Of a stretch of 64,000 nt of DNA, positions 36,521-63,898 are shown piece after piece. The notes beneath the pieces are model-generated. The model was given only the letters and a program-made list of their open reading frames with translations. It did not search any database and was not told the origin of the DNA. Location of the stretch: the IMG/VR virus record IMGVR_UViG_3300037418_003103. One strand, given 5' to 3'. This DNA is from a virus (lineage: Duplodnaviria; Heunggongvirae; Uroviricota; Caudoviricetes). Position numbers and translations under genes: made by a program. Numbering within the stretch: position 1 is the stretch's first letter; each line of letters begins with the position of its first letter.

Positions 36521-36865
36521 TGCAAATATAAGACTATTAATTCACTTAACCAAATTAATAGTCTTATATTTTCTAACTAATTAGATAAGGCTGAATCTAT
36601 CAGATCCAAAGTTGCTAACTGCATAGAAGCTCCAAAAAGAACCTGAGAAGAATGACTTAATTTTTTTCATAACGAATGATTTAATGATTAATAATGAAGT
36701 GCAAATATAAGACTAATTATTTACTTCACCAAATTTATTTTTATCTCATTTTAAAGCCCGTTAAGAAGATAAAGTGCCCAGCCTTACAAACATACTACCT
36801 GGCATTTATCCTGTCTCTATTGGCTTTATTCAGGGCTTTATTCTCATTCTAATCCATTTCATACA

Positions 36866-36904
36866 GGGCATAAAAAAACCTGCTAAGTTTAGCAGGTTTT
36901 AAAG
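36866..36904 (-). terminator. Terminator cassette copy 1
   Basis: GCATAAAAAAACCTGCTAAGTTTAGCAGGTTTT. Confidence 0.85.
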
Positions 36905-36918
36905 TGTAATCCTAAATA

Positions 36919-37857
36919 TTAATTCATGTAGGTAAGAATTTGCTCAAAGGCAAGGTTATCGATTGAAAATCCCGTGCCAACATATTTGGATTCCAAACGA
37001 GCATTTTCTCTAACGGGAACGGGCAATACATGTGAAGTGTAATGGGTTACGCCGTTAAGCAAACCGAATAGTGTTTCTCCCTGCCTTCCTGTTTCAAGTG
37101 CAATGCTTTCAAGCAATTCCTTTGTTCTGTTAAGAGCATACGCGCTATCTTCTTTGTTATCCTTTTTAAGGATGTCAACCTTTGTAATCCCCTTTACAAT
37201 TTGCGCAATGTGTTCCTGTTTAACGGGAATTTGTGAAAGTTTGATGAATTGGTCAAAGAGACTTTTTTCCTGCTCAATTACGCCATTAATTTGCCGTATT
37301 GCAGCCTCTACTTTATCGTGGATTGAAATGGTATGCCTTGCGCTGTTTTTCAGTTCCTTTTTAGCAGCATTAAAGGTATTCATGCAAACGATGTTAGTAG
37401 TAGTATTGCCCCATTTTAAAGAGGTGCTACCATCGTGAGAATTAATTGCAGTAACATAGCCATTTACGGTTGCACCAGCCTTACCAAGCCCAATGATTTT
37501 TGTATCAGTGTCCAATTGCAAATAAATTTTTGCACCCAAATTAAAGTCTCCGCCGCCTTTAATCTTATAGCCTGTTTTATCCACGATGCGAAGCAATAAT
37601 TCAGCAAGTTCTGAATTTTGAAACGGAGTATAGCCATCTTTGCAAGTTGCGAACGGATGCCTTATATCCTGTCTTACAACGGCATAAAAACCGCTATCCT
37701 TACCGTCGGGAAGAATCAATTTTTCCTTCTCTACATTCCATCTTAAACCGTACTTATCAAGCATTTCAGCAACTGCTTCCGTGTTGCTTTCGTTCTTTAC
37801 TGTCAAGCCTTCAATTGTTGAATTTAAGAGGCTGTTGATTTCATTAAAATTTTCCAT
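36919..37857 (-). CDS. DUF932/DUF945-family phage/plasmid protein (TIGR03299-like)
   Basis: GLRWNVEKE, YTPFQNSE, GAKIYLQL, NSHDGSTS, IVCMNT, GLLNGVTHY. Confidence 0.85.
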   Translation of the reverse strand: MENFNEINSLLNSTIEGLTVKNESNTEAVAEMLDKYGLRWNVEKEKLILPDGKDSGFYAVVRQDIRHPFATCKDGYTPFQNSELAELLLRIVDKTGYKIKGGGDFNLGAKIYLQLDTDTKIIGLGKAGATVNGYVTAINSHDGSTSLKWGNTTTNIVCMNTFNAAKKELKNSARHTISIHDKVEAAIRQINGVIEQEKSLFDQFIKLSQIPVKQEHIAQIVKGITKVDILKKDNKEDSAYALNRTKELLESIALETGRQGETLFGLLNGVTHYTSHVLPVPVRENARLESKYVGTGFSIDNLAFEQILTYMN

Positions 37858-37975
37858 GATGTGTTTTTTTTAAAGTGTGATTAAATAATGAGATGCAAAT
37901 ATAAGACTATTTTTTTAACCCACCAAATTTATTATAGCCTTCTAATAGATTTTTTTTTAAGTGAAAAGACAGGAG

Positions 37976-38010
37976 CATAAAAAAACCTGCTAAACTTAGC
38001 AGGTTTTAAA
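37976..38010 (-). terminator. Terminator cassette copy 2
   Basis: GCATAAAAAAACCTGCTAAACTTAGCAGGTTTT. Confidence 0.85.
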
Positions 38011-38026
38011 GGTTTAAATATTATTC

Positions 38027-38203
38027 TTAATTAGAACTTTGAGCGAATAGCTTTCTGCCATAATCAGTCTTCACAACGCCGTTTACAAGATACTTAATAT
38101 CTTGCCTGTGTTCAGAACCTAATACTTGCTCAACAGTAATTTTCTTGCCATTTACAATGAAGGTGCGGGTTTTCAAGATTGTTTGGTTTAATACGTTTGT
38201 CAT
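38027..38203 (-). CDS. Small cassette protein (58 aa)
   Basis: MTNVLNQTILKTRTFIVNGKKITVEQVLG...; sits between the 38234 promoter and terminator 2; below ORF-track cutoff. Confidence 0.7.
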   Translation of the reverse strand: MTNVLNQTILKTRTFIVNGKKITVEQVLGSEHRQDIKYLVNGVVKTDYGRKLFAQSSN

Positions 38204-38290
38204 TTTTTTAAAATTTTAGAGTGATTAACGAGATGCAAATATAAGACTATTTTTTGAACTACCAAAAATAAGATTAGGTTTTAAGACAAG

Positions 38291-38323
38291 GCATAAAAAA
38301 ACCTGCTAAATAGCAGGTTTAAA
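38291..38323 (-). terminator. Terminator cassette copy 3
   Basis: GCATAAAAAAACCTGCTAAATAGCAGGTTT. Confidence 0.85.
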
Positions 38324-38339
38324 TACGTCTTATTTATCT

Positions 38340-38915
38340 TTAATCATCACTTTCAACAAGGTCACCAGCGTCATAGATTACTTCGCAGGTATCGAGAATG
38401 AACATTCTCATTTTACTTGTTCTCATTCCCTTTCTTAACTCATCCTTTGCAATGGTTAGTGCCCTTTTATTAGTCTTTGGATAGTTGCCTTCAATCAAAA
38501 TTGTTTTATTGATCTTTGAGCCAAAGGCATATATCTTATCGAGCGTTAAATGATACTTAACATTTTCACATATATGTTCGTATGCTTCCGTTTGCGCAAT
38601 ACTCATGTTTGTGTTGGGCGCTATGAGTGAATTTAATAATTCAGTACGCGCCTTTTCCAAGTCAACTAATGAACTAACATAAGTACCTTTTAAAAGGTCT
38701 AAATTGGTCAGGTAATCAATATCCTTTGCCTTCTCTCTTTCGTAATTCAAACCGATATTAATGATGTAGTTTGAAGTTTCACCATGCTTATTGGTGTAGT
38801 TGCTAATAGACAAGAAACTAACACCTGTTGGGCTATTAGCAATTTTTGCCTTCATGTCCTCAATTTTCTCAATTGTTTCTTTTCCTGTTTCAATGAGTGT
38901 AACTAAATTTTCCAT
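38340..38915 (-). CDS. Hypothetical cassette protein
   Basis: 191 aa; own promoter at 38945. Confidence 0.75.
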   Translation of the reverse strand: MENLVTLIETGKETIEKIEDMKAKIANSPTGVSFLSISNYTNKHGETSNYIINIGLNYEREKAKDIDYLTNLDLLKGTYVSSLVDLEKARTELLNSLIAPNTNMSIAQTEAYEHICENVKYHLTLDKIYAFGSKINKTILIEGNYPKTNKRALTIAKDELRKGMRTSKMRMFILDTCEVIYDAGDLVESDD

Positions 38916-39118
38916 AATGCTTTTTGTTTAGATTAATAATGAAGTGCAAAAGTAAGACTAATTTTTCATTAATCCAAATCCATGTTAAATTTATTTTTTT
39001 GTAATATATTACAGCTGGTTTAAATACGAAGGTACGAAATAAAGTTCAAACAAAAAATAATTTTTTAAATTATTTTTTATAGCTTTGCAGTTAAGCGACT
39101 TAATGAGATAGACTATAT

Positions 39119-39325
39119 TCAAACCTCATATATCCAGGCATCCTTTGCTTCGCATTTTTCTGTTCTAAGATCTGAGGCAAGATCATGTGCCCATTCAGAA
39201 AGTTGCTCATCTGTTTCATCACCCTGAAAATTCCAGTCTACCAATTCCCCTTCAGCTAGTGGTTCGACGCCAAACTTTTGTAAAAAACGATTAAACGTGT
39301 TGTAGGATTCTTGTTTTGTTGTCAT
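39119..39325 (-). CDS. Hypothetical cassette protein
   Basis: 68 aa; promoter at 39344. Confidence 0.7.
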   Translation of the reverse strand: MTTKQESYNTFNRFLQKFGVEPLAEGELVDWNFQGDETDEQLSEWAHDLASDLRTEKCEAKDAWIYEV

Positions 39326-39407
39326 GCTGGAAATGATTTAGACCGCAAAGATAAGATTAATAATTGGACTTACCAAAAACTATTTTACGCCTACACAAAT
39401 GTGTACA

Positions 39408-39686: not shown

Positions 39687-39797
39687 TGTTACTATCGGTT
39701 TAAGGTGCAAATATAAGATTAATAATTTAACCAGCCAAAATTATTTACGCGGACACAAATGTGTACATTAAGCGTCCTCTGGCTATCAACGCCAAAA

Positions 39798-40181: not shown

Positions 40182-40237
40182 TCTTATTGATTTAGACTGC
40201 AAAGATAAGACTAATTTTGTAAGGCGCCAAATTTATT

Positions 40238-40510
40238 TTAACTCCATACGCCCGCACCCTCTAAATACCAGACAAGACAGGTATTAAAAGACAGGCCAAG
40301 TTTATGAGCAACTTCTTTAACTCCGTTAATTATTTCGCCCGCGTCTTCACCCTGTGAAAAGAATTCACAGCCATTCATACCTACTGAAATATAAGGTAGC
40401 CCATAATTGACTTCGATATCGACGTACCCGAAGCCTCTTTTTTTCATCACTTTTTTACAAGTGGTAGAAATTATTTTCTTTAATTCTTTTGCTGTCATAT
40501 CTTTGTCCAT
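40238..40510 (-). CDS. Hypothetical protein
   Basis: 90 aa ORF. Confidence 0.65.
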   Translation of the reverse strand: MDKDMTAKELKKIISTTCKKVMKKRGFGYVDIEVNYGLPYISVGMNGCEFFSQGEDAGEIINGVKEVAHKLGLSFNTCLVWYLEGAGVWS

Positions 40511-40516
40511 AGTGTT

Positions 40517-40873: not shown

Positions 40874-40887
40874 GATACAAATTTATG

Positions 40888-41136: not shown

Positions 41137-41248
41137 GATTGATTGATTTAGACTGCAAATATAGGATTAATTATTGACTTCACCAAATAAAAAAGCCACA
41201 AATTCATGTGGCCTTCATCATTAATCAATCCGACAAAAACAAAAAAAA

Positions 41249-41692: not shown

Positions 41693-41744
41693 TACGTATT
41701 GATTTAGGTCACAAAGATAAGACTAATTATTGACCCAGCCAAAT

Positions 41745-41945
41745 TTATTTTTGAATACCTTTTTCGCTCAGATCCTTTATTATAAGATCGTCAGCCTCTT
41801 TTAATCGCTTCCTGAGAACGATAATAGAACTTTCTCTCTGGACAATAATGTCTGTTAATTGTTCTGGCGTATAAGTTTTCCAAGGACCGTCAGGAGTAAT
41901 TCTATAATGAAGAACCCCATCAATTATTTTTTCTGCATAATACAT
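41745..41945 (-). CDS. Hypothetical cassette protein
   Basis: 66 aa; promoter at 41963. Confidence 0.65.
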   Translation of the reverse strand: MYYAEKIIDGVLHYRITPDGPWKTYTPEQLTDIIVQRESSIIVLRKRLKEADDLIIKDLSEKGIQK

Positions 41946-41975
41946 GATCGAATGATTTAGGCTGCAAATATAAGA

Positions 41976-42248
41976 CTATTTTTTTAAACTAACAACTTTA
42001 TTTTCTGTTTCGCACCAACTTGAATTAATCTTATATTTCTTGTCGTGCTGTTCTGAAATTAATATTGGTGCAACCGTCACGCCATTTGGATAAGTTATAA
42101 CAGCCCCTATATAAACAGTATCGACCTCTGAACCCACATATAATGAATCAAAGGCTGTGATAACCCCACATTTACTTGTGTCTGTATTTTCTTTTTTACA
42201 AGATGCCAGTAATGCCAGCACTGAGAATAAGAGTATAATTTTTTTCAT
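41976..42248 (-). CDS. Putative lipoprotein
   Basis: MKKIILLFSVLALLAS-CKKEN lipobox; promoter at 42265. Confidence 0.75.
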   Translation of the reverse strand: MKKIILLFSVLALLASCKKENTDTSKCGVITAFDSLYVGSEVDTVYIGAVITYPNGVTVAPILISEQHDKKYKINSSWCETENKVVSLKK

Positions 42249-42309
42249 TTTATTAATTTGATACTGCAAATATAAGACTAATTATTTAAAGTACCAAATT
42301 TATTTATAA

Positions 42310-42684: not shown

Positions 42685-42964
42685 GATTTTAGTTTTTTAT
42701 TTACTGTAATTCCTTACTGCGAGCGTAAGCATATTATTTAAATTTTATTACTCGATTCTTTTTGAACTCGAAGCCAAAGGCGTTATCGATAAAGACTTCA
42801 GTGATCGTGCCTTGTGCGGCTAATTTTTCCATATCTGAATTAGCAGCTTCTTTTGTCACGTAAACATAGAGGTAAGTGTCCAATCCAATTATTTCTTTTG
42901 ATATCATTATTTAAGTTTTAGATCGCAAATATAACAGTAATTATTGAAAGTACCAAATTTATTT

Positions 42965-43432: not shown

Positions 43433-43460
43433 GTTATTGATTTAGACTACAAATATAAGA

Positions 43461-43757
43461 TTAATTATTGGTATCATCAAATTTATTTTTAAAATACTGA
43501 ACAAATATGCAGTACCTGAAAATAAACCGTCCCAATGCCTGTAGTTCTTCAATGGTAGATCTTTTGAATGATTCATAAAAAGGAGATTCTTTGCTACATG
43601 GGCTACCAAATACTGGCGGTTTATACTCCCATAAAATAGGTAGTTTAACGCCGTTCTTATACAACCTGCCAGCGCATTCAAACCAAGCATCTATAGCATC
43701 GTCACTGGTATCAGTACAAATTGTTCTGAACTCATCCTTAAATTGTTTGATTGACAT
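43461..43757 (-). CDS. Hypothetical cassette protein
   Basis: 98 aa; truncated promoter copy at 43775. Confidence 0.65.
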   Translation of the reverse strand: MSIKQFKDEFRTICTDTSDDAIDAWFECAGRLYKNGVKLPILWEYKPPVFGSPCSKESPFYESFKRSTIEELQALGRFIFRYCIFVQYFKNKFDDTNN

Positions 43758-43787
43758 AATTTATAGATTTAGACTGCAAATATAAGA

Positions 43788-43976
43788 CTATTTATCCGAA
43801 TGATCAAAAATATATTTCCTTCTCGAATAAAGGAAGAGTATTATAATCACATCTTCATAACTTGCCTTATCATTAAGGAATTTATCTAAGCCCTGTATTA
43901 GGTGCAGAAATCCAATAATTACACTAAATATTATGGCAGGTATTAGCAGTTGAAATAAAAATTTTTTTAATTCCAT
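43788..43976 (-). CDS. Small membrane protein
   Basis: Two hydrophobic segments. Confidence 0.55.
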   Translation of the reverse strand: MELKKFLFQLLIPAIIFSVIIGFLHLIQGLDKFLNDKASYEDVIIILFLYSRRKYIFDHSDK

Positions 43977-43988
43977 TGTGTCTGGTTT

Positions 43989-44327: not shown

Positions 44328-44389
44328 GATGATTGATTTAGACTGCAAATATAAGACTATTAATTGAAACTACCAAATTTATTTGTTTA

Positions 44390-44620: not shown

Positions 44621-45020
44621 GATGTTTGTTTTTGCAATGATTGCCTTTTGTTTAATTAATATATGTTGTTTCCTTGCTACCAATCTTCTTTAAATCATTG
44701 TGAGGAAAATCCTTCAGATATGAAGATGGAACACAGGATCTAATAACACCCTTTGGAGTTAGGTCTGATTTCTTCTCAATCTTCTTTTTGGGTAAAAGGA
44801 ATTTAAACATTGTTATTGATTTAATAAGATGCAAAAATAAGACTAATTATTTTAAGTACCAAATTTATTTTGAATCGGTAGTATGTTACTGAATTAGCCA
44901 GAACATGCGAACCTTGTATGTTTATTTGTTATAAAACGGTAATTTATTACCGTTTCACAACTACTTTTGATACAGTACCAAAAGCCAGATTTGGAATAAG
45001 CATAATAAATTTATTTAATT

Positions 45021-45257: not shown

Positions 45258-45294
45258 TTGATTGATTTTGATTTGCAAATATAAGACTAATTAT

Positions 45295-46086
45295 TTACTT
45301 CACCAAATTTATTTGATGTTTAATTGAAACGTCACGATACAATCTGTGTTCCCTTAACATTTCGTATTCATCCATCGGCATCTTCAAATAGACATTCTTA
45401 CCCTTTATATGAGTAAACAGCTCCATGAATTTATCTAGTTGATCCATGTTAATTAATTGCGTCTCAATCCATACATTGCTTGCTTCTTGTAAACTTTTAA
45501 GAATGTAATCAGTGGACACTGATCTAAGAGAAGTAATGGCCTGTATATCACCCGCATCACTACCCAATAAATCACGTATTTCTTTAAACGTCTCAGGACT
45601 GCACTCGTTTGAATTTTCAAGTATTAGAGTATCTGCCGACACATGGCTTTCATCCTTTGGAAAGCCCTCACCCTTTGTTATGAGCGTCTCTACAATTTCG
45701 CCATGCCATATTTTTAAAAACACATCCAAACCACAGTAACCACCACCTTCTCTAACAAGAATATTTCCACAGGCTCTGAATGTTTTAATCATTCCTATTA
45801 ACCTTCCATCCAATACTTCAGCTAACAAAAATATTGGATACGTTTTTTCACCCTGTTTAGATGACTTACGCCTTGCGTTCATGTAGTCAATAATTCTTGT
45901 GTCACGCGGATTAGTTGAGGTAGTTGAAAACTTATCACCCTTTATACTCGAATGATGTAAAAAGTTTACTGAATCTGTATATACCATAACATCGTTATGT
46001 GGTAAAATATCCTCTTCATTCTCTATTAATTTTTGCCAGGATAAGATTTCACCCTCACCTGTTTTAATTTTTACAAATTTTGCCAT
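45295..46086 (-). CDS. Hypothetical cassette protein
   Basis: ~263 aa; promoter at 46103. Confidence 0.75.
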   Translation of the reverse strand: MAKFVKIKTGEGEILSWQKLIENEEDILPHNDVMVYTDSVNFLHHSSIKGDKFSTTSTNPRDTRIIDYMNARRKSSKQGEKTYPIFLLAEVLDGRLIGMIKTFRACGNILVREGGGYCGLDVFLKIWHGEIVETLITKGEGFPKDESHVSADTLILENSNECSPETFKEIRDLLGSDAGDIQAITSLRSVSTDYILKSLQEASNVWIETQLINMDQLDKFMELFTHIKGKNVYLKMPMDEYEMLREHRLYRDVSIKHQINLVK

Positions 46087-46240
46087 GATTAATGATTTAG
46101 ACTGCAAATATAAGACTAATTATTTAAAGTACCAAATTTATTTCATAGAAAAGCCCCATATTTCTATGAGGCAATTCATTAGCTTTATCCGCGCGTAAGA
46201 TATATCTTTTTTATTTACCAACCAAATTTATTTTTTAGTC

Positions 46241-46402: not shown

Positions 46403-46431
46403 TGTAATTGATTTAGACCACAAATATAAGA

Positions 46432-46914
46432 CTAATTATTTACTTCACCAAATTTATTTTCTTTAATCATATATCTTAGCCATCTTTTTTTAGCTCTTAA
46501 TCTTTCTATTTCTTTAACAATTGTTTTATCCTTTGGTAGGGATAGAATAACTTCCCATGTACCCTTCAACATTATTTTTGGATTTAAGAGTTCTTTATTA
46601 AATCTGCATAGAGTAAAATGAGTATAATTAAATACATAAATGTTGGTCAGTTTTCTATATCCTTTATCAGTAATATAGTTCCAATGATCAGAAATTCTTA
46701 GCCTCTCATCATTATTATAGAAACTTTTACTCATGGGAGATTTTTCAATAATCTCCCATGTTTTTAATTCTTCCAGTAATTCTTTTGGCATTTGATGTAA
46801 GCTGGTTTGTTCCAGTCTACTTAATTTAATACAAGGGTCGTACAGGCTGCGAATAAATATTTTAATTTCGCTCGCACATCTTGAATACTCTGCCATTGCC
46901 TTCCTTCTATCCAT
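46432..46914 (-). CDS. Hypothetical cassette protein
   Basis: 160 aa; SKSFY...RLRISDHWNY. Confidence 0.7.
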   Translation of the reverse strand: MDRRKAMAEYSRCASEIKIFIRSLYDPCIKLSRLEQTSLHQMPKELLEELKTWEIIEKSPMSKSFYNNDERLRISDHWNYITDKGYRKLTNIYVFNYTHFTLCRFNKELLNPKIMLKGTWEVILSLPKDKTIVKEIERLRAKKRWLRYMIKENKFGEVNN

Positions 46915-46959
46915 TATGCCACAAATATATGTTTACTTGTTGTAATTACCAAATTTATT

Positions 46960-47214
46960 TTATACACTTAGTGGTCTATAAAAAGTATGATAACCGCGTG
47001 TAATAACCTTACAAGGCTCTGAGGTTTTAGGATTCACTTCATAAAAGGAAATTATTTGGTCAAAGCTCCTATTATTCATTACCTTATACCATGTTAGGGT
47101 ATCTGTCGGACGTGCCTTTAATTCATCCTTAATAACCTGCAACGCCTCTTCTTTATTGAAGACCTTAGGTTCGTAGATCCTTGCCTCTAATTCATCCGAG
47201 TATAAATAATTCAT
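46960..47214 (-). CDS. Hypothetical cassette protein
   Basis: 84 aa; promoter at 47232. Confidence 0.65.
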   Translation of the reverse strand: MNYLYSDELEARIYEPKVFNKEEALQVIKDELKARPTDTLTWYKVMNNRSFDQIISFYEVNPKTSEPCKVITRGYHTFYRPLSV

Positions 47215-47439
47215 GATTGATTGATTTAGATCACAAATATAAGACTAATTATTCACTTCACCAAATTTTATTTTTGTTAAGGATTATTAACAATACAGCC
47301 TTGTATTGTTAATAATATTTAACGTTATAAGTTGTTTCTTTAAGGCAAGCGCACAATTGTGTACATACCCCTGAAGCTAAAAGATCCCTACACTGAGGGA
47401 TCTCTTGCCTAAATCTAAACAATCAATAATAAACCGAAC

Positions 47440-47634: not shown

Positions 47635-47762
47635 GATATAATTTTTAAAAGTAGGGGTTCGGTCACAGTCCGACTTGAGTGTCACAAGTTTTCTTAATCT
47701 TAGAGTAGTTCCTTACCCCCTTAGGACTACAAAGATAAGACAAATTATTTAAACTACCAACT

Positions 47763-48635
47763 TTATTTTTTTAATTCATGCGAAGCCTCAGCAATAGACT
47801 TTATTGTCTCTGTCATTTCAATCTCATACTTCATTCTTGGTGAATTATGAATAATCGCATCCTTCCACTGCTTATTGTACTCTTCCAAAGCCTCTTCCAT
47901 ATTCACTGTGAAGTACATCTGTTTAAGGGAAGCCATAACCTCAGCAACCTTCTTTGGAATTCCCCTTGATTGCAGATAAAATACGGCATCCTTATTTTGT
48001 GAGGTATATAAGCCTTTAGTCCTGACACCAGTTATTGAATTCATATAAGCCTCTGCAAATTGGTCGATGTCGTCAACCAGCTCATACTCATCTGGCATGA
48101 GATAGGCCTTCTGAGACTTTGTTTTGTAAATATAGACCTCATAAGGCTGTAGGCTTATTCGATTTCTTATCATTAATTCAGGTGTGCTGTCGTTAAGAAA
48201 TTTAGAAGCGTTTTCAAGGTTCTTAGTTTTAAGATTTCTTTTCGTGCTTCTTAACTCACGCTCTATTAATTCAGTCCACCTTCTTAACCTTACCGCTTTT
48301 CTTGCAAAGTGCACCTCGAACCCAGTCTCCGTCCTGATCTTTATCCAACCTCCACCCTCAGGAAGGAGCTTGTTTTCATTTGGAAAATATATCTCGCAAT
48401 CGAACTTTTGGATATTGTTATCAAAGTACTCTGCATGAATTTCCTCCATGCCATCAAGAACTTCATCCAGATACCCGCCCCAAATGTCTTCTTCAAAAGA
48501 AAATTCCTCTCTTTCCACCGCATAAATTAACTGTTCAGCATTAACTAATTTTTCGCTAAATTTTAGGTAATACATAAACTTGAAACTACTCAAGTTATCT
48601 TCAATAAATTGTTTATGCCGTTCTGTTAGTGTCAT
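47763..48635 (-). CDS. Hypothetical protein with SufB/SufD-like C-terminal motif
   Basis: AVFYLQSRGIPKKVAEVM resembles the SufBD LFYL.SRGI...A motif; the remainder is unrecognised. Confidence 0.55.
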   Translation of the reverse strand: MTLTERHKQFIEDNLSSFKFMYYLKFSEKLVNAEQLIYAVEREEFSFEEDIWGGYLDEVLDGMEEIHAEYFDNNIQKFDCEIYFPNENKLLPEGGGWIKIRTETGFEVHFARKAVRLRRWTELIERELRSTKRNLKTKNLENASKFLNDSTPELMIRNRISLQPYEVYIYKTKSQKAYLMPDEYELVDDIDQFAEAYMNSITGVRTKGLYTSQNKDAVFYLQSRGIPKKVAEVMASLKQMYFTVNMEEALEEYNKQWKDAIIHNSPRMKYEIEMTETIKSIAEASHELKK

Positions 48636-48882: not shown

Positions 48883-48952
48883 GTTGTTTGATTTAGAATG
48901 CAAATATAAGACTAATTATTTACATTGTCAAATTTATTTTATTCCATCCATT

Positions 48953-49156: not shown

Positions 49157-49234
49157 GATAAATTTTTTAAATGATTAATATTATGCTGCAAATATAAGAC
49201 TAATTATTTACTTCACCAAATTTATTTTAAAAGT

Positions 49235-49420: not shown

Positions 49421-49498
49421 CTCTTAGTCTCTTGCTATTCAGCATTGTAGGCGTGTATCGGCGCCTCGTTGTTCGGTCATTTAGACCTACACTAAGAG
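49421..49498 (-). ncRNA. Candidate multi-stem RNA immediately 3' of the tRNA-like element
   Basis: 8-bp closing stem 49421-28/49491-98 plus internal hairpins. Confidence 0.4.
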
Positions 49499-49500
49499 CG

Positions 49501-49632
49501 TGGGATGAATGGGGAGTTGAACCCCATAAGTCTCTAAGTATGGGAAGTTATTTTTACAAACGTATCTATGCGGTTGCAACCGCACATCAACTTTAACCAT
49601 ACTAAGTGTTCTTACATTTGAACTATTCTCCC
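49501..49632 (-). ncRNA. tRNA-like RNA with extended anticodon arm and 53-nt insert
   Basis: GGGAGAA acceptor, UA, D-arm GUUC/GAAC, 10-bp anticodon stem, T-arm UGGGG-UUCAACU-CCCCA, 3' UUCAUCCC-A; no encoded CCA. Confidence 0.7.
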
Positions 49633-49638
49633 GTGTAT

Positions 49639-49863
49639 TTATTCTACTTCTCTTCCAAGAATTTCTTCCAGCTTTGCTTTCAATTCGTGTTTAGCTGCTA
49701 TACCGTAATAATATTGATACAGAAGCAATTGTATTCCTTTATCGGTAGTATCTTTAGGCTGTTCATCTGAATACTTTAGCTTTAAGTAATTCGCTCCCAG
49801 GTCATAAGCGTCCATTTCAAGATAGGGAGTCTCATTTAATTTTTGTATTAGATCTTTCTTCAT
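49639..49863 (-). CDS. Hypothetical protein
   Basis: 74 aa ORF. Confidence 0.6.
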   Translation of the reverse strand: MKKDLIQKLNETPYLEMDAYDLGANYLKLKYSDEQPKDTTDKGIQLLLYQYYYGIAAKHELKAKLEEILGREVE

Positions 49864-50117: not shown

Positions 50118-50173
50118 GCTATTGATTTAGAATGCAAATATAAGACTAATTATTGAAACGATCAAATTTATTT

Positions 50174-50410: not shown

Positions 50411-50553
50411 ACCACAAATTTAATATTATCTTTCCAAACTACCAAATAATTTTTCTTGTTGTATTAGAGCTGACAGCACAGCCTTCATGATCTGATTCCA
50501 TGCTCTATTCAGATGCTTCTTGCTTATATAATGCTCCGCTTCTCTTTGTCATC

Positions 50554-50811: not shown

Positions 50812-50886
50812 GATTGATTGATTTAGGCTGCAAATATAAGACTAATAATTGAAACTGCCAAATTTATTTAGGAAAAATTTCGTAAG

Positions 50887-51177
50887 TTATAATTTTTTAT
50901 GTTCAAGAATTACAACAGACACAACGTCTCCATTAGATTCCAGAAGCAGAAGTTGATTATTGTTAACCTCAATTTCATCATCACCCCATATCTTGAAGCT
51001 GTACTCGTATTCCAGCCCCTCTTCGTCCGTGTAGTTGGCATCCACGTTCCAAAATTCATCATTATCTGGCTGTTCTATTAATGGATAGGTTACTGCCGAA
51101 TTATTATCCATAATGATAATTGCTGAAGCATTTTCAAGCAGTTCGATTGCTTCCTTTCCTGTAATTGTTTTATTCAT
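50887..51177 (-). CDS. Acidic hypothetical cassette protein
   Basis: N-terminus duplicated with 52285..52920. Confidence 0.7.
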   Translation of the reverse strand: MNKTITGKEAIELLENASAIIIMDNNSAVTYPLIEQPDNDEFWNVDANYTDEEGLEYEYSFKIWGDDEIEVNNNQLLLLESNGDVVSVVILEHKKL

Positions 51178-51233
51178 TTAATTTGATTTAGAATGCAAAT
51201 ATAAGACTAATAATTGAAACTGCCAAATTTATT

Positions 51234-51491
51234 TTATCCCCATTGAGTAACCTTCCCACAAGTTTGACAGCACCAACCATGCGAGCCTGTTTCGGTTTCC
51301 CAATACACAGAATCATAATCATGGTCGCAATCGGACAGGGCTTCTATTTGCTCTGTTTGTGTAACATTCGGTAATGGGATTACTTCATCAAGATAATTTG
51401 AATTTATTGCATTAGAAAGATGCAACATTTCTTCTCTTGTCGTTTTTATTCCTTCCATTCCGCCTCTTGGCCTAAATTCGAAAGTACTCAT
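51234..51491 (-). CDS. Hypothetical protein with zinc ribbon
   Basis: HGWCCQTCGKVTQWG. Confidence 0.65.
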   Translation of the reverse strand: MSTFEFRPRGGMEGIKTTREEMLHLSNAINSNYLDEVIPLPNVTQTEQIEALSDCDHDYDSVYWETETGSHGWCCQTCGKVTQWG

Positions 51492-51770: not shown

Positions 51771-52015
51771 GGTTATTTTGTTTTAGAATGCAAATATAAG
51801 ACTAATTATTGAATGTACAAAATTTATTTCTTTTCACCAGTGAACTCCACACTCCAACGATCATCAAAATCGAACCAAGCGCCACCCACTCTGACCTGAG
51901 AAGTCGTGAGGTCAAGTGTAGCTGAAGCACCAACTGAACAATATCTATCTGATATAGGATAGCATAGAACCTTAACTTGAATTCTTTTCATAATTTTATT
52001 TTAGGCTGATCAATT

Positions 52016-52216: not shown

Positions 52217-52284
52217 ATTTTTTCCTCCAGTATTTGAGTTATTGATTTATGCAAATATAAGATTAATAATTAGAACAACCAAAT

Positions 52285-52920
52285 TTATATTGGGAATAGT
52301 TCAAAAGTTCCAGTCTTCTTATTAATTTTCATTACACCAACACGTGACTTATCCTTATCGTAATCATTTTGAAGGAATAGAAAATCCTTTGATTCTACCG
52401 CATTGCTTGCATTGCAATACAACTCACCTGTTTCAATATTATAGTAGTTTCTACCCATTGAATAGATACAACTATCCTTTGTAAGATAAGCATGTTTGAA
52501 TCCGTCAAACACAACCTTTTCATTTCCTTCAGCATCAATGATACACCAATGGCCTGCCAAGTGCCTTGGATCTTTTGAACCTGACATTTTAAGAATATCC
52601 TTTGAGTAGAATTCCTCTACATGCTTAATCAGCATGAAGTACCTGTCTTTGGTTAAATCTGGATAGTTTAAACCTCCTACCCTGTATAGAGTATCATTGA
52701 TTCTTTTGCCATCTTTAAACAAGCCAACAAAATCGGTAAGGTCTTCATTCCACTTCTTTCTATAATCTGCATCCACTCCAACAGGTAGTATTTGTAGATT
52801 GTCACCGTTTTTATATGGCGTGCGGGGTGCTGACTTGAACTCATTTGAAAACAGGAGCTTAATTGCTAAGGCATTTTCAAGCAGTTCGATTGGTTCCTTT
52901 CTTGTAATTGTTTTATTCAT
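52285..52920 (-). CDS. Hypothetical, probably chimeric cassette protein
   Basis: First ~17 aa shared with 50887..51177. Confidence 0.7.
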   Translation of the reverse strand: MNKTITRKEPIELLENALAIKLLFSNEFKSAPRTPYKNGDNLQILPVGVDADYRKKWNEDLTDFVGLFKDGKRINDTLYRVGGLNYPDLTKDRYFMLIKHVEEFYSKDILKMSGSKDPRHLAGHWCIIDAEGNEKVVFDGFKHAYLTKDSCIYSMGRNYYNIETGELYCNASNAVESKDFLFLQNDYDKDKSRVGVMKINKKTGTFELFPI

Positions 52921-53016
52921 TTAATTTGATTTAGACTGCAAATATAGGTTTAATTATTGAAAGTACCAAATATATTTGCTCAATAACATATCACATGTTA
53001 TTGAGCAAATAAGTTG

Positions 53017-53907: not shown

Positions 53908-53959
53908 GATTGATTGATTTAAGACACAAATATAAGACTAATTATTTACTTCGACAAAT

Positions 53960-54169
53960 TTATTTATATGGATCGTCCCATTTTTCATCTGGATAATTGT
54001 CATTAAGAATATGGTCAATAAAATAAGAATCATCTATGTAATTTCCGTCCTGACAGGGTTCTTGTAAAAAAGTATTTACTGCGTTATTAACCGCATCCTG
54101 TAAATTTTCTCCCTGTATTTTATAAACCTTAACCACTTCAAATACAATAGGAATATCATATGTTTTCAT
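53960..54169 (-). CDS. Hypothetical protein
   Basis: 69 aa ORF. Confidence 0.65.
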   Translation of the reverse strand: MKTYDIPIVFEVVKVYKIQGENLQDAVNNAVNTFLQEPCQDGNYIDDSYFIDHILNDNYPDEKWDDPYK

Positions 54170-54616: not shown

Positions 54617-54673
54617 TTGTTTTGTGTTTAGATTGCAAATATAAGACTAATAATTGAAACTGCCAAATTTATT

Positions 54674-54961
54674 TTAATCTTCGTATGAAAGAAAAGCGTC
54701 GGTAGACCCCTCTGAAAACATATCGTGTCCGTAATTGTCTATCAGATCAAATAGTCTTTTAACATCTGCAGGTTTTATCTTATACTTAGATTTAATACTC
54801 TGAATAAACGTATTTAAATCGTACTCAGGCCTTTTTATCTCCCCCTGGCATATTACTTCGCCCTTAGCATCAAGCAGATCACACCTTACCATTTCTATAC
54901 TACGAGGCCAATCAGTATTATAAGTGGAGTTTATCCGTCCGAAGGTGCTATTTTTGTACAT
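54674..54961 (-). CDS. Hypothetical protein
   Basis: 95 aa ORF. Confidence 0.6.
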   Translation of the reverse strand: MYKNSTFGRINSTYNTDWPRSIEMVRCDLLDAKGEVICQGEIKRPEYDLNTFIQSIKSKYKIKPADVKRLFDLIDNYGHDMFSEGSTDAFLSYED

Positions 54962-55417: not shown

Positions 55418-55471
55418 GTTTAATGATTTAGACTGCAAATATAAGACTAATTATTTAAAGTACCAAAAGTA

Positions 55472-55690
55472 TTAGTCGGTTTCAATAAGTTTTTTGACTT
55501 CATCATAGTTATCATCAAAAGTTTTTTCGCCTGTTGCTTCAAGTATTCTAACGCCTAATATTACGTTATACTCTTTTTCGTACCAAGTCAATAAATCATT
55601 TGCAGCCCATACAGCCTCTGACGGAGTATCACCACCCCAGGAATAAAGAAGTGTACTTAAAACTGCTATGAATTCTTTTTTATTCTTCAT
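55472..55690 (-). CDS. Hypothetical protein
   Basis: 72 aa ORF. Confidence 0.6.
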   Translation of the reverse strand: MKNKKEFIAVLSTLLYSWGGDTPSEAVWAANDLLTWYEKEYNVILGVRILEATGEKTFDDNYDEVKKLIETD

Positions 55691-55953: not shown

Positions 55954-56278
55954 GATGTATTAATTTAACGCAAATATAAGACTAATTATTGAACGCACCA
56001 AATTTATTTTTAAGATAGTTTATTTCTAGGTATAATGGGATGACCTCTTTTCTTTTGAAACTTATGTTCTCTTTTAAATCTGCGGTTATGCTTATAGACT
56101 TCTATCTTATAAGCCGCATAAAATGATGCAATAAAAACAATTGTGCATAACATATTGATGCTTACTTTATTTAAGGACTGTATTAGTTTAAAATACCAAA
56201 TAAAAAATCTTCCCTTTTAGAGGAAGATTTCTTATGACCGATTTACAATTCACATGCAATTACAAAACAAATATACTA

Positions 56279-56614: not shown

Positions 56615-56697
56615 GTTTGTAAGGTTTTAAATGGTTCAAGTTACTAATATAAGATTAAATCGACGTGACCAGGCATAGAGGTCACAAATGTGTACAT

Positions 56698-56952: not shown

Positions 56953-57029
56953 ATTCTTTTTTTCAATTTTTAGATTAATGCAAATATAGGATTAATTTTT
57001 GTATGCACCAAATTTATTATTCAATTTCT

Positions 57030-57587: not shown

Positions 57588-57638
57588 GTTGTTTTATTTA
57601 GGCTGCAAATATAAGACTAATAATTGATTCTGCCAAAT

Positions 57639-57935
57639 TTATTTTTTTCTTCTTCTTCGTGGTAATTTCTTCTTGCCATTGATATAGTTGTCCTTCTCTT
57701 CAAATAAATAAGGCTCTTCTATTACAGGCGGTATAAGAAGGGGAAGTGGCGGAACAAGAGGTACAACCTCTGAAAGAGGCCTTTTACTAAGATCCACGAA
57801 CTCACAGTCAGGGTGTTCTATTTGAACAGCACTCAGAAGTTCAGGACTAGGTTCGCCGACAACGAGTATAGTTTTATCTTGAATGTGATTAAAGTATTTA
57901 ATCGCTGGATTATTTCCTATTACAATAATTTTCAT
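57639..57935 (-). CDS. Hypothetical Pro-rich protein with basic tail
   Basis: VPLVPPLPLLIPP...KKKLPRRRRKK. Confidence 0.55.
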   Translation of the reverse strand: MKIIVIGNNPAIKYFNHIQDKTILVVGEPSPELLSAVQIEHPDCEFVDLSKRPLSEVVPLVPPLPLLIPPVIEEPYLFEEKDNYINGKKKLPRRRRKK

Positions 57936-57963
57936 ATCTAGAATAACAAGTTTGTTTACGAAT

Positions 57964-58329: not shown

Positions 58330-58377
58330 GATTTTTATTTTATGCAAATATAAGATTAATAATTGGAAGTTCCAAAT

Positions 58378-58731
58378 TTATTCTCCAATTTGATTTTGAA
58401 AATATATTTGATCGTATATGTTTTGAGTCAGTATAAAGAAAGTGTCTCTGCCAACCAAATCGGCGTGTGGCTCGCCCCAATTCATATAAGGCTCAGCACG
58501 TACTTCGTCATCAAATGACTTTTTAAGTCTATCCATAAAGAGATAATACTTGAATAGAGCCAAATCAGCCTTTCGTTTCTTCTTGCTTTCATAAGTAAAA
58601 TAATGAAGCGTTCCCGAAGCAAATATATCTAAGGTGTAATGGTCTAATACTTTCCCCTTTGAGATAAAAATACTCTTACTACCGATTAGAGACATATAGG
58701 TTTGTTCTAATTCTGAATCATTGAATGGCAT
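58378..58731 (-). CDS. Hypothetical cassette protein
   Basis: 117 aa; promoter at 58749. Confidence 0.6.
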   Translation of the reverse strand: MPFNDSELEQTYMSLIGSKSIFISKGKVLDHYTLDIFASGTLHYFTYESKKKRKADLALFKYYLFMDRLKKSFDDEVRAEPYMNWGEPHADLVGRDTFFILTQNIYDQIYFQNQIGE

Positions 58732-58789
58732 TGTTTAAAATTTTATACTTCAAAGATAAGACTATTTATTGAAACAGCCAAATTTATTA

Positions 58790-58896: not shown

Positions 58897-58940
58897 CAAT
58901 ACAAACCTACTAAATTTATTTGATAACACCAAGTAAAAAA

Positions 58941-59359: not shown

Positions 59360-59390
59360 TTTTAATAAATTAGCGATTCACAAATATAGC

Positions 59391-60146: not shown

Positions 60147-60198
60147 GATTAAATATTTTAGGCTGCAAATATAAGACTAATTTTTGACTTGGCCAAAT

Positions 60199-60678
60199 TT
60201 ATTTTTCTCTTTCTTCCTTAAGGATTTCATCAATAATTTCTTTTGATATACGATTACATTCAGCAGTATGTTTTTTTAATTGCGCTGGTGTCATAAGAAC
60301 GGTACGATCAATTTGCTCTATTAGATCCTTATAGGCAGCCTTTCCAAGATCCTCATTAAACTTAATCTCATGCACATAGTCTCCATACACCACATAGCTT
60401 ATCTGATTTATTTGCATCCTGATATATACAAGTGTTTCAGGACTATGAAAGTATCCGAAGCCATGTTCCTTTAACGTTGATTTATAAGCGCCAACAGCCT
60501 TCTTGAACGCATTATTAAATTCTACCTCCAAGCGCTGTCTGGCTTCATTGAGATGGTTTGCCAAGAAGATATGCTCTTCTTTGAACGGCTTAGGGTACAA
60601 CGAGTACTCCAACGGATTCTTAGCTATTTCAAGTAGCCTACTTAGTATCTTTAAATTTTCTGTTGATCTCATATCCAT
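60199..60678 (-). CDS. Hypothetical cassette protein
   Basis: 159 aa; promoter at 60694. Confidence 0.7.
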   Translation of the reverse strand: MDMRSTENLKILSRLLEIAKNPLEYSLYPKPFKEEHIFLANHLNEARQRLEVEFNNAFKKAVGAYKSTLKEHGFGYFHSPETLVYIRMQINQISYVVYGDYVHEIKFNEDLGKAAYKDLIEQIDRTVLMTPAQLKKHTAECNRISKEIIDEILKEEREK

Positions 60679-60772
60679 GTGGTTAAAGTGTCCTGCAAAT
60701 ATAAGATTAATTATTTAAACTGCCAAATTTATTTTTAAGTAAAAAGCCTCACTTTAAATGAGGCTTAATTTG

Positions 60773-61462: not shown

Positions 61463-61521
61463 TCCTATAATTTAATTATAAATATCGATAACTGCTGCAA
61501 ATATACTTAATTTTAGGTCTC

Positions 61522-62157
61522 TTAGTCACCAATTTTCTCGTCCAATCCCCAACCGAATAGCTGTTGGCAAACAAATCTCCCATCAAGCCAATTCTGTGCT
61601 TCACCGTCGCTTGATACCTCACTTTCAGGAAAGTGATGTTTTAATGCAATGAGTACTGCGGTAACTGTTAGATCGTACGGTCTGTATGCTGTCTTACAGA
61701 AATTAAATATCAATTTATCGTCCTTTCTCCATTCCTCTTGTTTCTCAACGCGATAAATAGAACAAGTTTCATAGCTTCCGCTTCCAACTTGCGTCAGATT
61801 ATTAAGTGGTGCACAGCGCTGAGAAATAAGATGTCCAGCAAACCAATTTCCATCAGTTTTTGAAGAAAGGGAAGTTTCGTCAGGTTCAACCAAATCAGCA
61901 TTATTCGATGGCCAAGGAATACTTAATTCTTCATTGGTAGTCCACTTACCCTTTGGTTGTGCTTCTGAGCCATTAAATTGAATTGTTTCTTCAGTTGCCT
62001 CTGGCTGGGTGTTAGGGTCTCCAAGCCCATTAGCCAATGCTATCCCTAAAACGTTTTGCGAGTAGTCAAATATTTTTTGACAATCATCAGCAAATGCCTT
62101 GAACTCTTCTTTAGTTCCAAGTGTTTCTGGCCTGCGCCAGTAATGCGTGTATCCGAT
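61522..62157 (-). CDS. Hypothetical cassette protein with non-canonical (ATC) or mutated start
   Basis: Frame extends 40 codons above TTG 62037 to ATC-GGA-TAC-ACG-CAT-TAC-TGG (xGYTHYW); FCKTAYRPYD motif. Confidence 0.65.
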   Translation of the reverse strand: MGYTHYWRRPETLGTKEEFKAFADDCQKIFDYSQNVLGIALANGLGDPNTQPEATEETIQFNGSEAQPKGKWTTNEELSIPWPSNNADLVEPDETSLSSKTDGNWFAGHLISQRCAPLNNLTQVGSGSYETCSIYRVEKQEEWRKDDKLIFNFCKTAYRPYDLTVTAVLIALKHHFPESEVSSDGEAQNWLDGRFVCQQLFGWGLDEKIGD

Positions 62158-62249
62158 AGTTGTAACGCCCTTTTGGATGCGCCCTCTTGTTTAGGTTAAT
62201 AATTAATTTGATGCTGCAAATATAAGACTAAGTTTTGAAACTACCAAAT

Positions 62250-62630
62250 TTATTTTTGCTTGTTGAAAATATAATCAATAAGATCAATTATAATCTCTAC
62301 GGTTCCCCATCCCGCATAATCACGTTCTACATAAATACGAGAAGACTTTTTCTCATAAAGAGATGGAACACCCTTATAAAAAACTAGTAAGTACTTTTTA
62401 TCAGTATTTTCTTCTGTACTGATAGGCAGTTCAAATAGGTCAAGTATTTTTTGATTCTCTACGAAACCATAATTTCCTGACATATCAAATCTTTTATGCT
62501 CACTTCTTACGCTTTTATCTCTGTGTAGGAAGTCAAGAAAATTCCTAAAACTCTGACCAAGTATTTGTCTAACCATATACTCTAACTCCAGAGCCTGCTT
62601 CATTTTAAGTTCTTGTATTTTTTGTAACAT
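62250..62630 (-). CDS. Hypothetical protein
   Basis: 126 aa ORF. Confidence 0.65.
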   Translation of the reverse strand: MLQKIQELKMKQALELEYMVRQILGQSFRNFLDFLHRDKSVRSEHKRFDMSGNYGFVENQKILDLFELPISTEENTDKKYLLVFYKGVPSLYEKKSSRIYVERDYAGWGTVEIIIDLIDYIFNKQK

Positions 62631-62677
62631 GCTTTTTAAATTGATGATGCAAGTGTTAGATTAAATTTTGTAAAAAT

Positions 62678-63058
62678 TTATTTTATTTTCATTTTTGATA
62701 AACCCTTTAATTCTTCAAAACTAAAATCAGTTTCTTTATGAATAAAATTATACTGATTGCATAGCTCTTCAATGTCTATAAGCATTTCAGCGTGTTGCTG
62801 CTCATTCAAATCTTTAATATGTATATAATCCCATTTTTTATAGAATTGCATGGCTTTTTTTGCTTCCTTTAATAGGCTTTTTTGAGCTTGTCCACATTCA
62901 ATATAATCCGTCTTTGGCCGATTAAACATAGCAGCTTGGGTAGCAAAATACTTACTTTTGTTATTACTTAGACGATAATATTGTACTTCAAATACTATCA
63001 ACTTGCTAATCTGAAAGGCATAATGGAAGGAAGTTAATTCTTTTATTTTTGTATTCAT
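62678..63058 (-). CDS. Hypothetical cassette protein
   Basis: Start trimmed to MNTKIK; promoter at 63075. Confidence 0.7.
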   Translation of the reverse strand: MNTKIKELTSFHYAFQISKLIVFEVQYYRLSNNKSKYFATQAAMFNRPKTDYIECGQAQKSLLKEAKKAMQFYKKWDYIHIKDLNEQQHAEMLIDIEELCNQYNFIHKETDFSFEELKGLSKMKIK

Positions 63059-63109
63059 TGTAAATATTTTATACTGCAAATATAAGACTAATTTTTGGCT
63101 CTACCAAAT

Positions 63110-63898
63110 TTATTTTTCTTGTAGCGGTATAAAGATATCATTTAAATACCATCGGGTAAGAGAATACACGTCTTTCCAAGATACATCGTCAACACCATTG
63201 GTTCCCTTTAGCATTAAACCTATGTCGTGAAAATATCCATCTTTTACAGCGGTTGAAACATCGAGTACTTCGTATTTGTTGTTTAATTTATCTCCGACCC
63301 TTATACTCTTGATCTTTTCAAACATATCTGTCTTTGCAAACAATTCCAAATACTTATTAAACAGTTCTTCGCAACAAAATATGAAATCGTCTATGGAACT
63401 AAGATCATCAGCTCCGTTCCAAATATTTTTAATAACTACATGCTTCGGCCTTGGAAAACAATATTCATTCCAAAGTGTATGAATTTCATCCTTAGAAATA
63501 ATTTTAATTAAGTCCTCCATCGAATTATCTAAATCGGTAAAGTTGCTTTCAACATACTTGTCGTTATCCTCATCGCTCATCTTCTCTAAATCGGAATGAA
63601 ATGTAAAACAGCCATACTTATTGAACCAGCTGATTTCTTTATTTACATTCTTAAAGAAGATAGTAAAGTGCGTTTGATATTTTCGAATGATGAGGGTTAC
63701 TTCTTTCTTTTTAATTATAGCCCAGTCATAATTTTTACCCTCATCCCATTTAAGTTTTTCCAGCTTTTTTAATCTCTGATTGGGAAGACTGCTTGAAATA
63801 TAATTAAAGGCTTCCTTAAATTTACCACCAAGTTTCAACTCATACATAATATAAGAAGTCACAACATTTTTATCGAAATTAAATATTTCCTTTAGCAT
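63110..63898 (-). CDS. Hypothetical protein
   Basis: 262 aa ORF. Confidence 0.7.
   Translation of the reverse strand: MLKEIFNFDKNVVTSYIMYELKLGGKFKEAFNYISSSLPNQRLKKLEKLKWDEGKNYDWAIIKKKEVTLIIRKYQTHFTIFFKNVNKEISWFNKYGCFTFHSDLEKMSDEDNDKYVESNFTDLDNSMEDLIKIISKDEIHTLWNEYCFPRPKHVVIKNIWNGADDLSSIDDFIFCCEELFNKYLELFAKTDMFEKIKSIRVGDKLNNKYEVLDVSTAVKDGYFHDIGLMLKGTNGVDDVSWKDVYSLTRWYLNDIFIPLQEK

Follow-up and report, generated by a model that had tools for sequence, protein, structure and literature searches.

The early classes of large lytic phages, such as the T4 early promoters, the SPO1 host-takeover module and the phiKZ early promoters, consist of dozens of near-consensus promoters that are conserved beyond the sigma boxes and head small host-takeover genes within one co-oriented block. 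T4-type genomes carry about 50 copies of an element called PeSL (promoter-early stem-loop), which lies in hyperplastic regions upstream of ORFans (PMC2839356; PMC4122927), and each PeSL unit has an upstream stop codon in an AT-rich tract, a host-type early promoter and a downstream start codon (PMC2839356). The PeSL mechanism was established by breakpoint mapping and mini-circles. In Bacteroidota, promoters of the primary sigma factor (sigma-ABfr) have a -33 TTTG and a -7 TAnnTTTG element, and translation has no Shine-Dalgarno sequence and an enrichment of A upstream of the ATG (PMC7366714). Here we describe an array of promoter-like repeats ahead of small genes in a 64,000-nucleotide window of a tailed phage (IMG/VR record IMGVR_UViG_3300037418_003103; Caudoviricetes). 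With a probability of about 0.68, we interpret the array as the hyperplastic early-gene region of a complete 345-kb Bacteroidota jumbo phage, with one strong host-type promoter per one to three genes. The extended conservation of the repeat would be due mainly to selection on promoter and translation function, with recombination as a by-product.

The window is the reverse complement of genome positions 100530-164529 (window position = 164529 - g + 1, where g is the genome position), and coordinates refer to the window unless the genome is named. The source record is a single contig of 345,454 bp with direct terminal repeats that is classed as complete; GC content is ~33%. The window DNA is present at ~100% identity in rhizosphere and soil metagenome runs, and a megablast search against cultured phages gave no match. 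The present phage (G0) was compared with its relatives G2 (356 kb), G3 (353 kb) and G009 (a 233-kb fragment).

An array of co-oriented promoter-like repeats

The repeat was counted by three methods. A 20-mer from the repeat core has 30 matches at ≤3 mismatches, all on the minus strand between 36518 and 63091, compared with 0.02 expected from shuffles. The strict pattern TTTG-N17-23-TAnnTTTG has 55 matches in the window versus 5.5 expected, and 43 of these lie on the minus strand at 36523-63108. A 64-nt position weight matrix (PWM) trained on the copies and used with a cut-off of 20 bits found 44 copies within 36521-63115, again all on the minus strand. These counts confirm the central observation of an earlier sequence-only reading of this DNA, a repeated promoter-like unit ahead of the genes of this interval. 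Applied to the whole genome, the motif model returned 67 forward and 2 reverse copies above the cut-off, and the five shuffled genomes used as the control never exceeded 7 bits.

The array does not end at 63115, as had been proposed. It continues ~9 kb past the end of the window to genome position 91384, and the full array comprises 53 co-oriented and 2 divergent copies over 36.6 kb, or about one per 0.7 kb. Its left boundary is a divergent promoter region at genome 91300-91560 (L018 10300-10560), where two leftward copies (63 and 48 bits) stand back to back with the first rightward one and precede a 40-amino acid (aa) and then a 97-aa open reading frame (ORF). Outside the array are fourteen weaker copies over genome 6-89 kb and one at 332 kb, all on the same strand. 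Host-type sites number 13-16 per 10-kb bin in the array versus 0-3, the chance level, across the rest of the genome.

The description of the repeats as heads of single-gene cassettes holds for 26 of the 44 units in the window, which carry one ORF. The remainder carry two (12 units), three (3 units) or four ORFs (1 unit) or lack an ORF of ≥30 aa (2 units); three ORFs of the four-ORF unit are 35 aa and probably not genes. About two thirds of the ORFs are directly headed by a promoter.

The surrounding genome is strongly strand-biased. Between the left genome end and the end of the array (genome 0-128 kb), some 260 small ORFs all share one strand, and 26 small ORFs on the opposite strand follow at genome 128-140 kb. 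Dense promoters are confined to the last 37 kb of the first one-strand block, and in the preceding 90 kb their density is one to three per 10 kb.

Anatomy of the repeat unit

The conserved unit spans ~60 nt instead of the ~40 bp first described. In order, it consists of an AAATAAA A-tract, the -33 box TTTGG, a variable hexamer, CAATAAT, TAGTC, the -7 box TTATATTTGCA and a leader. The -7 box (TAnnTTTG) is ~90-99% invariant across the 53 array copies, and the spacer is A-rich, ends in TTAGTC and measures 20 nt in nearly all of them. The leader is G-poor and A-rich, has no Shine-Dalgarno sequence and often reads GTCTAAATCAATCAATC-ATG. The ATG is located 17-21 nt past the -7 G in 31 of the 53 copies (mode 18-19) and only 4 nt past it in 4 copies, a spacing that implies leaderless or near-leaderless mRNAs for these four putative promoters.

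The repeat had been reported to start at the previous stop codon. This is so in about half of the copies, where the stop is inside the unit or ≤8 nt away, and is not so in the others. In 12 copies, the TAA of AAATAAATTTGG is itself the upstream stop. The upstream ORF ends ≤8 nt from the -33 box in ~22 copies and overlaps the promoter in 5.

No conserved secondary structure or dyad symmetry was found in the repeat (mean minimum free energy (MFE) of -4.7 kcal/mol), and the 60 nt upstream of the copies fold no better than random 60-mers from the array (-8.0 vs -8.2). A strong terminator-like hairpin stands just upstream of only ~7-10 of 53 copies. Among them, three copies at the right end of the array share one terminator-promoter composite, with hairpins at 38320-38299, 38007-37982 and ~36900-36872. 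The variants of the spacer fall into linked subtypes, which reappear in copies that are not adjacent, and blocks of 40-70 nt at 75-90% identity connect all units.

Promoter class and candidate sigma factors

Both boxes and their spacing equal the published sigma-ABfr consensus, with the -33 TTTG 19-21 nt from the -7 box, and all copies are co-oriented with their genes. Multisubunit RNA polymerase domains were not detected in the genome, so the host core enzyme must be used. The right-arm genes (genome 141-345 kb), whose ORFs are on average much larger, are enriched upstream for a different box, (T/A)AGATATTTAT(A/T). The core of this box, ATATTTAT, is present in 40 of 228 right-arm upstream regions versus 3 expected, and in the cases examined a longer form, GATATTTAT, is found 5-25 nt ahead of the ATG and is not accompanied by a -33 element. 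The AGATATTTAT class is likely a late promoter class.

Early promoters for the host RNA polymerase are the best reading of the array repeats, because the array sites are almost the only host-type sites in the genome, no phage RNA polymerase was detected and the right-arm genes carry a different box. The sequence-only reading had reached the same view, and the sigma-ABfr grammar, the co-orientation and the ATG spacing agree with it; promoter activity, early timing and use of the host sigma factor are what we infer from these features. Upon infection, the unmodified host RNA polymerase holoenzyme would fire all ~55 units at once and independently of each other. Many small, fast-evolving accessory proteins would thereby be expressed at a high level, whatever the position of their genes. 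Transcript 5' ends are expected ~5-9 nt downstream of the TTATATTTG boxes. Later genes would be read from AGATATTTAT-type promoters, presumably with phage-encoded sigma-like factors.

Two findings weigh against an early class read by the host sigma factor. The array is located 91-128 kb from the left genome end and is not terminal, and the phage encodes sigma factors that may be what actually reads the extended motif. Four ORFs of the sigma-70 family are present (window 20339-20806, plus strand; genome 16673-17548, 185207-185932 and 314137-314958). Two of them have region 2 only (155 and 241 aa). The other two, of 291 aa (genome 16673-17548) and 273 aa (genome 314137-314958), carry regions 1.2, 2 and 4, score as RpoD/RpoS-like and are compact, which we take to be about the size of sigma-ABfr itself. 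Both are conserved in G3 and G2, and the G3 orthologue of the 291-aa protein is encoded just upstream of the array. The repeats could be a phage-specific delayed-early or middle class read by one of these two primary-like sigma factors, with TTAGTC and the spacer as the discriminator, and the extended motif is common in phage arrays and rare in bacterial genomes. This alternative is possible but unlikely. The copies fit the host consensus almost perfectly at both elements and should therefore be recognized by the host holoenzyme anyway, and they are almost the sole host-type sites on hand to start the infection programme. Rarity in the host genome is also the norm for phage early promoters, which in T4, T5 and T7 are consensus "super-promoters".

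Conservation of the spacer and leader across phages

The sequence-only reading held that sigma recognition does not need the conserved spacer and leader, and that they are hence homology blocks. This argument is weakened by the arrays of other phages. The exact 19-mer AATTAGTCTTATATTTGCA is present in 26 JGI/TARA metagenome contigs from marine and other samples, and many of these contigs hold arrays of the same unit before small ORFs, as follows.

TARA scaffold 6250: 24 copies, spread over four pieces
L199: 13 copies within 12 kb
L176 and L200: 19 copies
L177, L188 and L192: arrays of the same unit

Sites were also collected blind to the spacer, using the two boxes only at 20-nt spacing. The consensus (ATTTGGT, a G/T-rich stretch, AA(A/T)AAT(T)AGTC and TTAT(A/C)TTTGCA) is nearly alike in each set, including G2, and the recurring extended consensus is TTTGGT...AAAATTAGTC-TTAT[A/C]TTTGCA. 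The array-bearing contigs share only a handful of genes with the present phage, at 27-53% aa identity. In G3 and G009 the array has a variant of the box, TTATTCTTATATTTGTA, and its spacer is far less conserved. Among 185,579 bacterial and archaeal genomes, the exact 19-mer occurs at 13 isolated sites, 10 of them in Bacteroidota and several with a plausible -33 box. The leader alone is lineage-specific, and its consensus A at -3, -4, -7, -8 and -11 to -13 partly fits the A-rich translation rule for mRNAs that lack a Shine-Dalgarno sequence.

Selection on promoter function is indicated because the same spacer consensus recurs in the arrays of other phages. This recurrence suggests that the extended consensus is a property of the phage promoter class, kept by selection across lineages, and not the trace of recent copying inside the genome. 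The shared spacer consensus also suggests unrecognized promoter determinants beyond the -33 and -7 elements. The extended conservation would thus come mainly from selection for promoter and translation-start performance. A broader proposal is that the extended ~40-nt consensus is a phage-specific class tuned to phage sigma-A-like factors that doubles as a homology adaptor for cassette exchange among unrelated co-infecting phages, in this case dissimilar Bacteroidota phages from soil, freshwater, wastewater and ocean. If true, phages across an entire bacterial phylum would have one common (pan-phage) system for exchanging accessory genes; we regard this proposal as decidedly unlikely.

Conservation that reaches beyond both sigma boxes, on either side, could also mark the spacer, the leader or both as an operator or RNA target. 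A phage regulator, either a DNA-binding repressor or a RegA/RegB-like factor, would then shut the early class off together. Large lytic phages such as T4 generally shut off their early genes in a co-ordinated way, and the leader consensus varies between phage lineages and is uniform within each, as for a co-evolving regulator. The unit has neither dyad symmetry nor conserved secondary structure, no candidate regulator was identified, and the spacer consensus, unlike the leader, is common to the lineages. These points make a shared regulatory target quite improbable.

Gene turnover and possible recombination at the repeats

The gain and loss of array genes that the sequence-only reading proposed is real. 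G0 and G3 keep their core genes in collinear order, with 40-60% aa identity, and G3 and G009 have an array in the same place and the same orientation with its genes replaced. Of the ~230 ORFs at genome 30-140 kb, only 2 have a homologue in G3, and G2 shares 80 of 535 proteins. Array genes recur mosaically in other array-bearing contigs, in different neighbourhoods. The 191-aa gene at 38915-38340 is among the few array genes conserved elsewhere (38% aa identity to G3 and 46% to the metagenomic contig L200) and is promoter-headed here, in G3 and in L200. A 262-aa gene is the third in its unit here and promoter-headed in L176.

Shuffling at the repeats themselves is plausible but unproven. One chimeric pair was found, 52860-52977 and 51117-51234, both on the minus strand. 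Over the A-tract and spacer the two copies agree at 24/30 positions, as any two copies typically do. The match then climbs to 25/27 between the -7 box and the ATG and to 57/62 over the opening 62 nt of coding sequence, and beyond that point it falls abruptly to 20/60 (random). The left junction is in the promoter, and the right junction is inside the coding sequence. A weak RecA-like ORF is present in the genome. As a by-product of selection, the 40-70-nt blocks that connect the units would be adequate substrates for homologous recombination at their level of identity. Much like the PeSLs of T4-type phages, these blocks have probably helped genes in this region to be gained, lost and fused.

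Several results are neutral or count against a contribution of recombination. Copies next to each other differ about as much as copies far apart (16.3 vs 17.2 mismatches), with only a weak regional trend (Spearman 0.2). The units are not compositionally distinct, with a between-unit GC variance that is not above that of shuffled boundaries, and there are only 3 paralogue pairs. The nearest relatives have ~65-70% nt identity in core genes and are too distant for breakpoint mapping. Searches for a closer relative returned one distant 221-kb fragment only (exact promoter 19-mer in IMG/VR), nothing (20-mer of the -7 box plus leader), the source contig alone (exact-protein look-up) and at most 74% aa identity (an 828-aa protein as probe); of two cassette proteins, one gave no relative and the other a relative at 31%. 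Logan contigs of the runs that hold this DNA end at the repeats, and each apparent joint is a short repeat contig that maps to several copies; assembled contigs cannot show rearrangements.

The 828-aa protein is encoded at 6047-8533 on the plus strand and is conserved across many unrelated phages. It has 42-55% aa identity to records labelled as Staphylococcus, Listeria and Enterococcus phage and to uncultured phages of 630-640 kb. The gene is widely transferred and a poor lineage marker. Some of its IMG/VR homologues are ~500-1100 nt longer, which suggests inserted elements.

In its strong form, the homology argument states that the spacer and leader are kept as PeSL-like or integron-like homology blocks and that the promoter needs the two sigma boxes only. 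The blocks that connect all units, the linked spacer subtypes at non-adjacent copies, the almost complete replacement of gene content relative to the syntenic G3, the cassette genes held mosaically in common with other array-bearing contigs and the chimeric junction in the promoter are consistent with this form. It is nevertheless very improbable. Contigs with almost no genes in common with this phage keep the spacer consensus, which homogenization within one genome cannot explain, and the leader fits the A-rich translation signal (PMC7366714). Neighbouring copies show no gradient of similarity, neither an integrase nor a structured recombination site was found, and the right-hand junction of the sole chimera lies inside coding sequence and not in the repeat. 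A site-specific cassette system comparable to an integron, to which the sequence-only reading had likened the region, has next to no probability, because the shared layout of many small co-oriented ORFs between repeats is superficial, the tyrosine recombinase family PF00589 has no match in the complete genome (the control was positive in 14/14 genomes), no attC-type hairpins were found in the repeat, and every unit has its own promoter in a repeat 5' of the genes with promoter grammar, versus one Pc that serves promoterless cassettes.

Cargo of the array

The array encodes almost entirely unknown small proteins, in agreement with the first description, and 58 of the 60 array proteins in the window have no Pfam family. 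The two families found are DUF932/TIGR03299 and DUF3293. The DUF932 match lies within the array, and its placement on the 312-aa gene at 37857-36919 is a guess. Eight of the 60 proteins have a PHROG, all of unknown function, and scans of the array proteins against Pfam, PHROGs and NCBIfam returned DUFs only. ESM Atlas look-ups of two large array proteins gave nothing above chance level. A weak SAM-lyase match (E 0.016) was not assignable to any of ten mid-sized proteins and was dropped. By analogy with other large phages, it is a reasonable guess that the cargo may act in host takeover or anti-defence.

Map of the array in the window

The units are listed below in the direction of transcription. 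Promoter coordinates run from the A-tract to the -7 G, bits are PWM scores, and the coordinates that follow the score are those of the ORFs downstream; (-) is the minus strand.

36523-64000 (-): window part of the array; 44 promoter-headed units between 63115 and 36523, from the PWM scan and ORF map
64000-63110 (-): three ORFs of a unit whose promoter lies outside the window
63077-63115 (-): promoter, 64 bits; 63058-62678 and 62630-62250
62217-62255 (-): promoter, 59 bits; long untranslated or short-ORF stretch, then 61462-60773
61478-61486 (-): second-class motif GATATTTAT, sole copy inside the array; 18 nt upstream of the ATG of 61462-60773
60696-60734 (-): promoter, 58 bits; 60678-60199
60166-60204 (-): promoter, 64 bits; 60146-59391 and 59359-59180
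58751-58789 (-): promoter, 53 bits; 58731-58378
58345-58383 (-): promoter, 51 bits; 58329-57964 and 57935-57639
57606-57644 (-): promoter, 68 bits; 57587-57030
56981-57019 (-): promoter, 45 bits; three genes, 56952-56010
55971-56009 (-): promoter, 59 bits; 55953-55708 and 55690-55472
55436-55474 (-): promoter, 57 bits; 55417-55016 and 54961-54674
54636-54674 (-): promoter, 66 bits; 54616-54179 and 54169-53960
53927-53965 (-): promoter, 52 bits; 53907-53017
52939-52977 (-): promoter, 57 bits; 18-bp terminator-like hairpin before it, 53011-52973; 52920-52285 (chimeric pair, partner 1)
52252-52290 (-): promoter, 43 bits; 52216-52016 and 51991-51824
51791-51829 (-): promoter, 63 bits; 51770-51501 and 51491-51234
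51196-51234 (-): promoter, 68 bits; 51177-50887 (chimeric pair, partner 2)
50831-50869 (-): promoter, 67 bits; 50811-50554
50415-50453 (-): weak copy, 29 bits; ATG 4 nt past the -7 G (leaderless-type); 50410-50174
50135-50173 (-): promoter, 65 bits; 50117-49860 and 49863-49639, then a structured non-coding stretch
49189-49227 (-): promoter, 63 bits; 49156-48953
48901-48939 (-): promoter, 63 bits; 48882-48646 and 48635-47763
47730-47768 (-): promoter, 44 bits; leader of ~95 nt, then 47634-47440
47234-47272 (-): promoter, 54 bits; 47214-46960
46922-46960 (-): weak copy, 36 bits; 46914-46432
46421-46459 (-): promoter, 63 bits; 46402-46241
46105-46143 (-): promoter, 66 bits; terminator-like hairpin before it, 46172-46153; 46086-45295
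45276-45314 (-): promoter, 55 bits; 45257-45021
44832-44870 (-): promoter, 51 bits; 44810-44652 and 44620-44390
44346-44384 (-): promoter, 67 bits; 44327-43989 and 43976-43788
43777-43815 (-): promoter, 47 bits; 43757-43461
43450-43488 (-): promoter, 57 bits; 43432-42965
42926-42964 (-): promoter, 59 bits; 42907-42734 and 42684-42310
42267-42305 (-): promoter, 66 bits; 42248-41976
41965-42003 (-): promoter, 59 bits; 41945-41745
41712-41750 (-): promoter, 57 bits; 41692-41249
41156-41194 (-): promoter, 49 bits; terminator-like hairpin before it, 41216-41191; three genes, 41136-40238
40200-40238 (-): promoter, 58 bits; 40181-39798
39708-39746 (-): promoter, 48 bits; 39686-39408
39346-39384 (-): promoter, 44 bits; 39325-39119
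38947-38985 (-): weak copy, 31 bits; 191-aa gene 38915-38340
38236-38274 (-): weak copy, 31 bits; terminator hairpin before it, 38320-38299 (terminator-promoter composite, PeSL-like subtype); 38203-38027
37896-37934 (-): promoter, 53 bits; terminator hairpin of the same type, 38007-37982; 312-aa gene 37857-36919
36702-36740 (-): promoter, 57 bits; third copy of the terminator hairpin, ~36900-36872; only a 29-codon ORF follows
36523-36561 (-): last copy, 41 bits; followed by a C-rich non-coding stretch where two transcription blocks converge

Two non-coding stretches adjoin these units. The first, at 49495-49640 (minus strand), is located within the array right after the ORF 49863-49639 and folds into a cloverleaf-like structure with a long extra arm (MFE -39.1 kcal/mol, z -3.2). 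Neither ARAGORN nor Rfam makes a call on it, and scans of the window with both gave no matches. The second, at 36250-36520, is C-rich (G-rich on the plus strand), contains repeated units of the AAATTTCTGG type and directly follows the last promoter copy, where the gene blocks converge.

Comparison with known systems

The array has the same layout as PeSLs. Like them, it places ~50 host-primary-sigma-type promoters per genome in a hyperplastic region, directly upstream of ORFans, and has an upstream stop in the A-tract or near the unit, an abutting downstream ATG and fast gene turnover. Unlike PeSLs, the array uses the Bacteroidota -33/-7 elements and not -35/-10, and has no Shine-Dalgarno sequence. 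The defining stem-loop is not in the unit, and a hairpin just upstream is limited to the few copies noted above. Although the array works like PeSLs, most of its copies have no stem-loop and its grammar is that of Bacteroidota, so we class it as a variant of PeSLs rather than as one of them.

The copies share both boxes, the spacing and the A-rich leader devoid of a Shine-Dalgarno sequence with sigma-ABfr host promoters. Host promoters are individually degenerate, whereas the ~55 array copies follow a much longer consensus. The ~60-nt promoter-leader consensus, with its natural variants, could be used in Bacteroidota as a strong and portable part for gene expression, and the array consensus together with the AGATATTTAT class could help to tell early from late genes in Bacteroidota phages that have not been cultured. 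Integron arrays are similar in that small co-oriented genes are lined up with a repeat between them. They differ in that the repeat here is 5' of the gene and promoter-like, and any recombination would be homologous and not site-specific.

The T4, SPO1 and phiKZ early classes differ from the array in host phylum, promoter grammar and density, which at one promoter per ~0.7 kb over 37 kb is unusually high here. With ~55 units in 37 kb, this would be among the largest and cleanest one-promoter-per-gene early regions. It extends the T4-type picture, in which strong host-type promoters mark the plastic, ORFan-rich part of the genome, to Bacteroidota, a phylum with another promoter and translation grammar. 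The array is the Bacteroidota counterpart of T4-like early-promoter regions and not a new kind of element.

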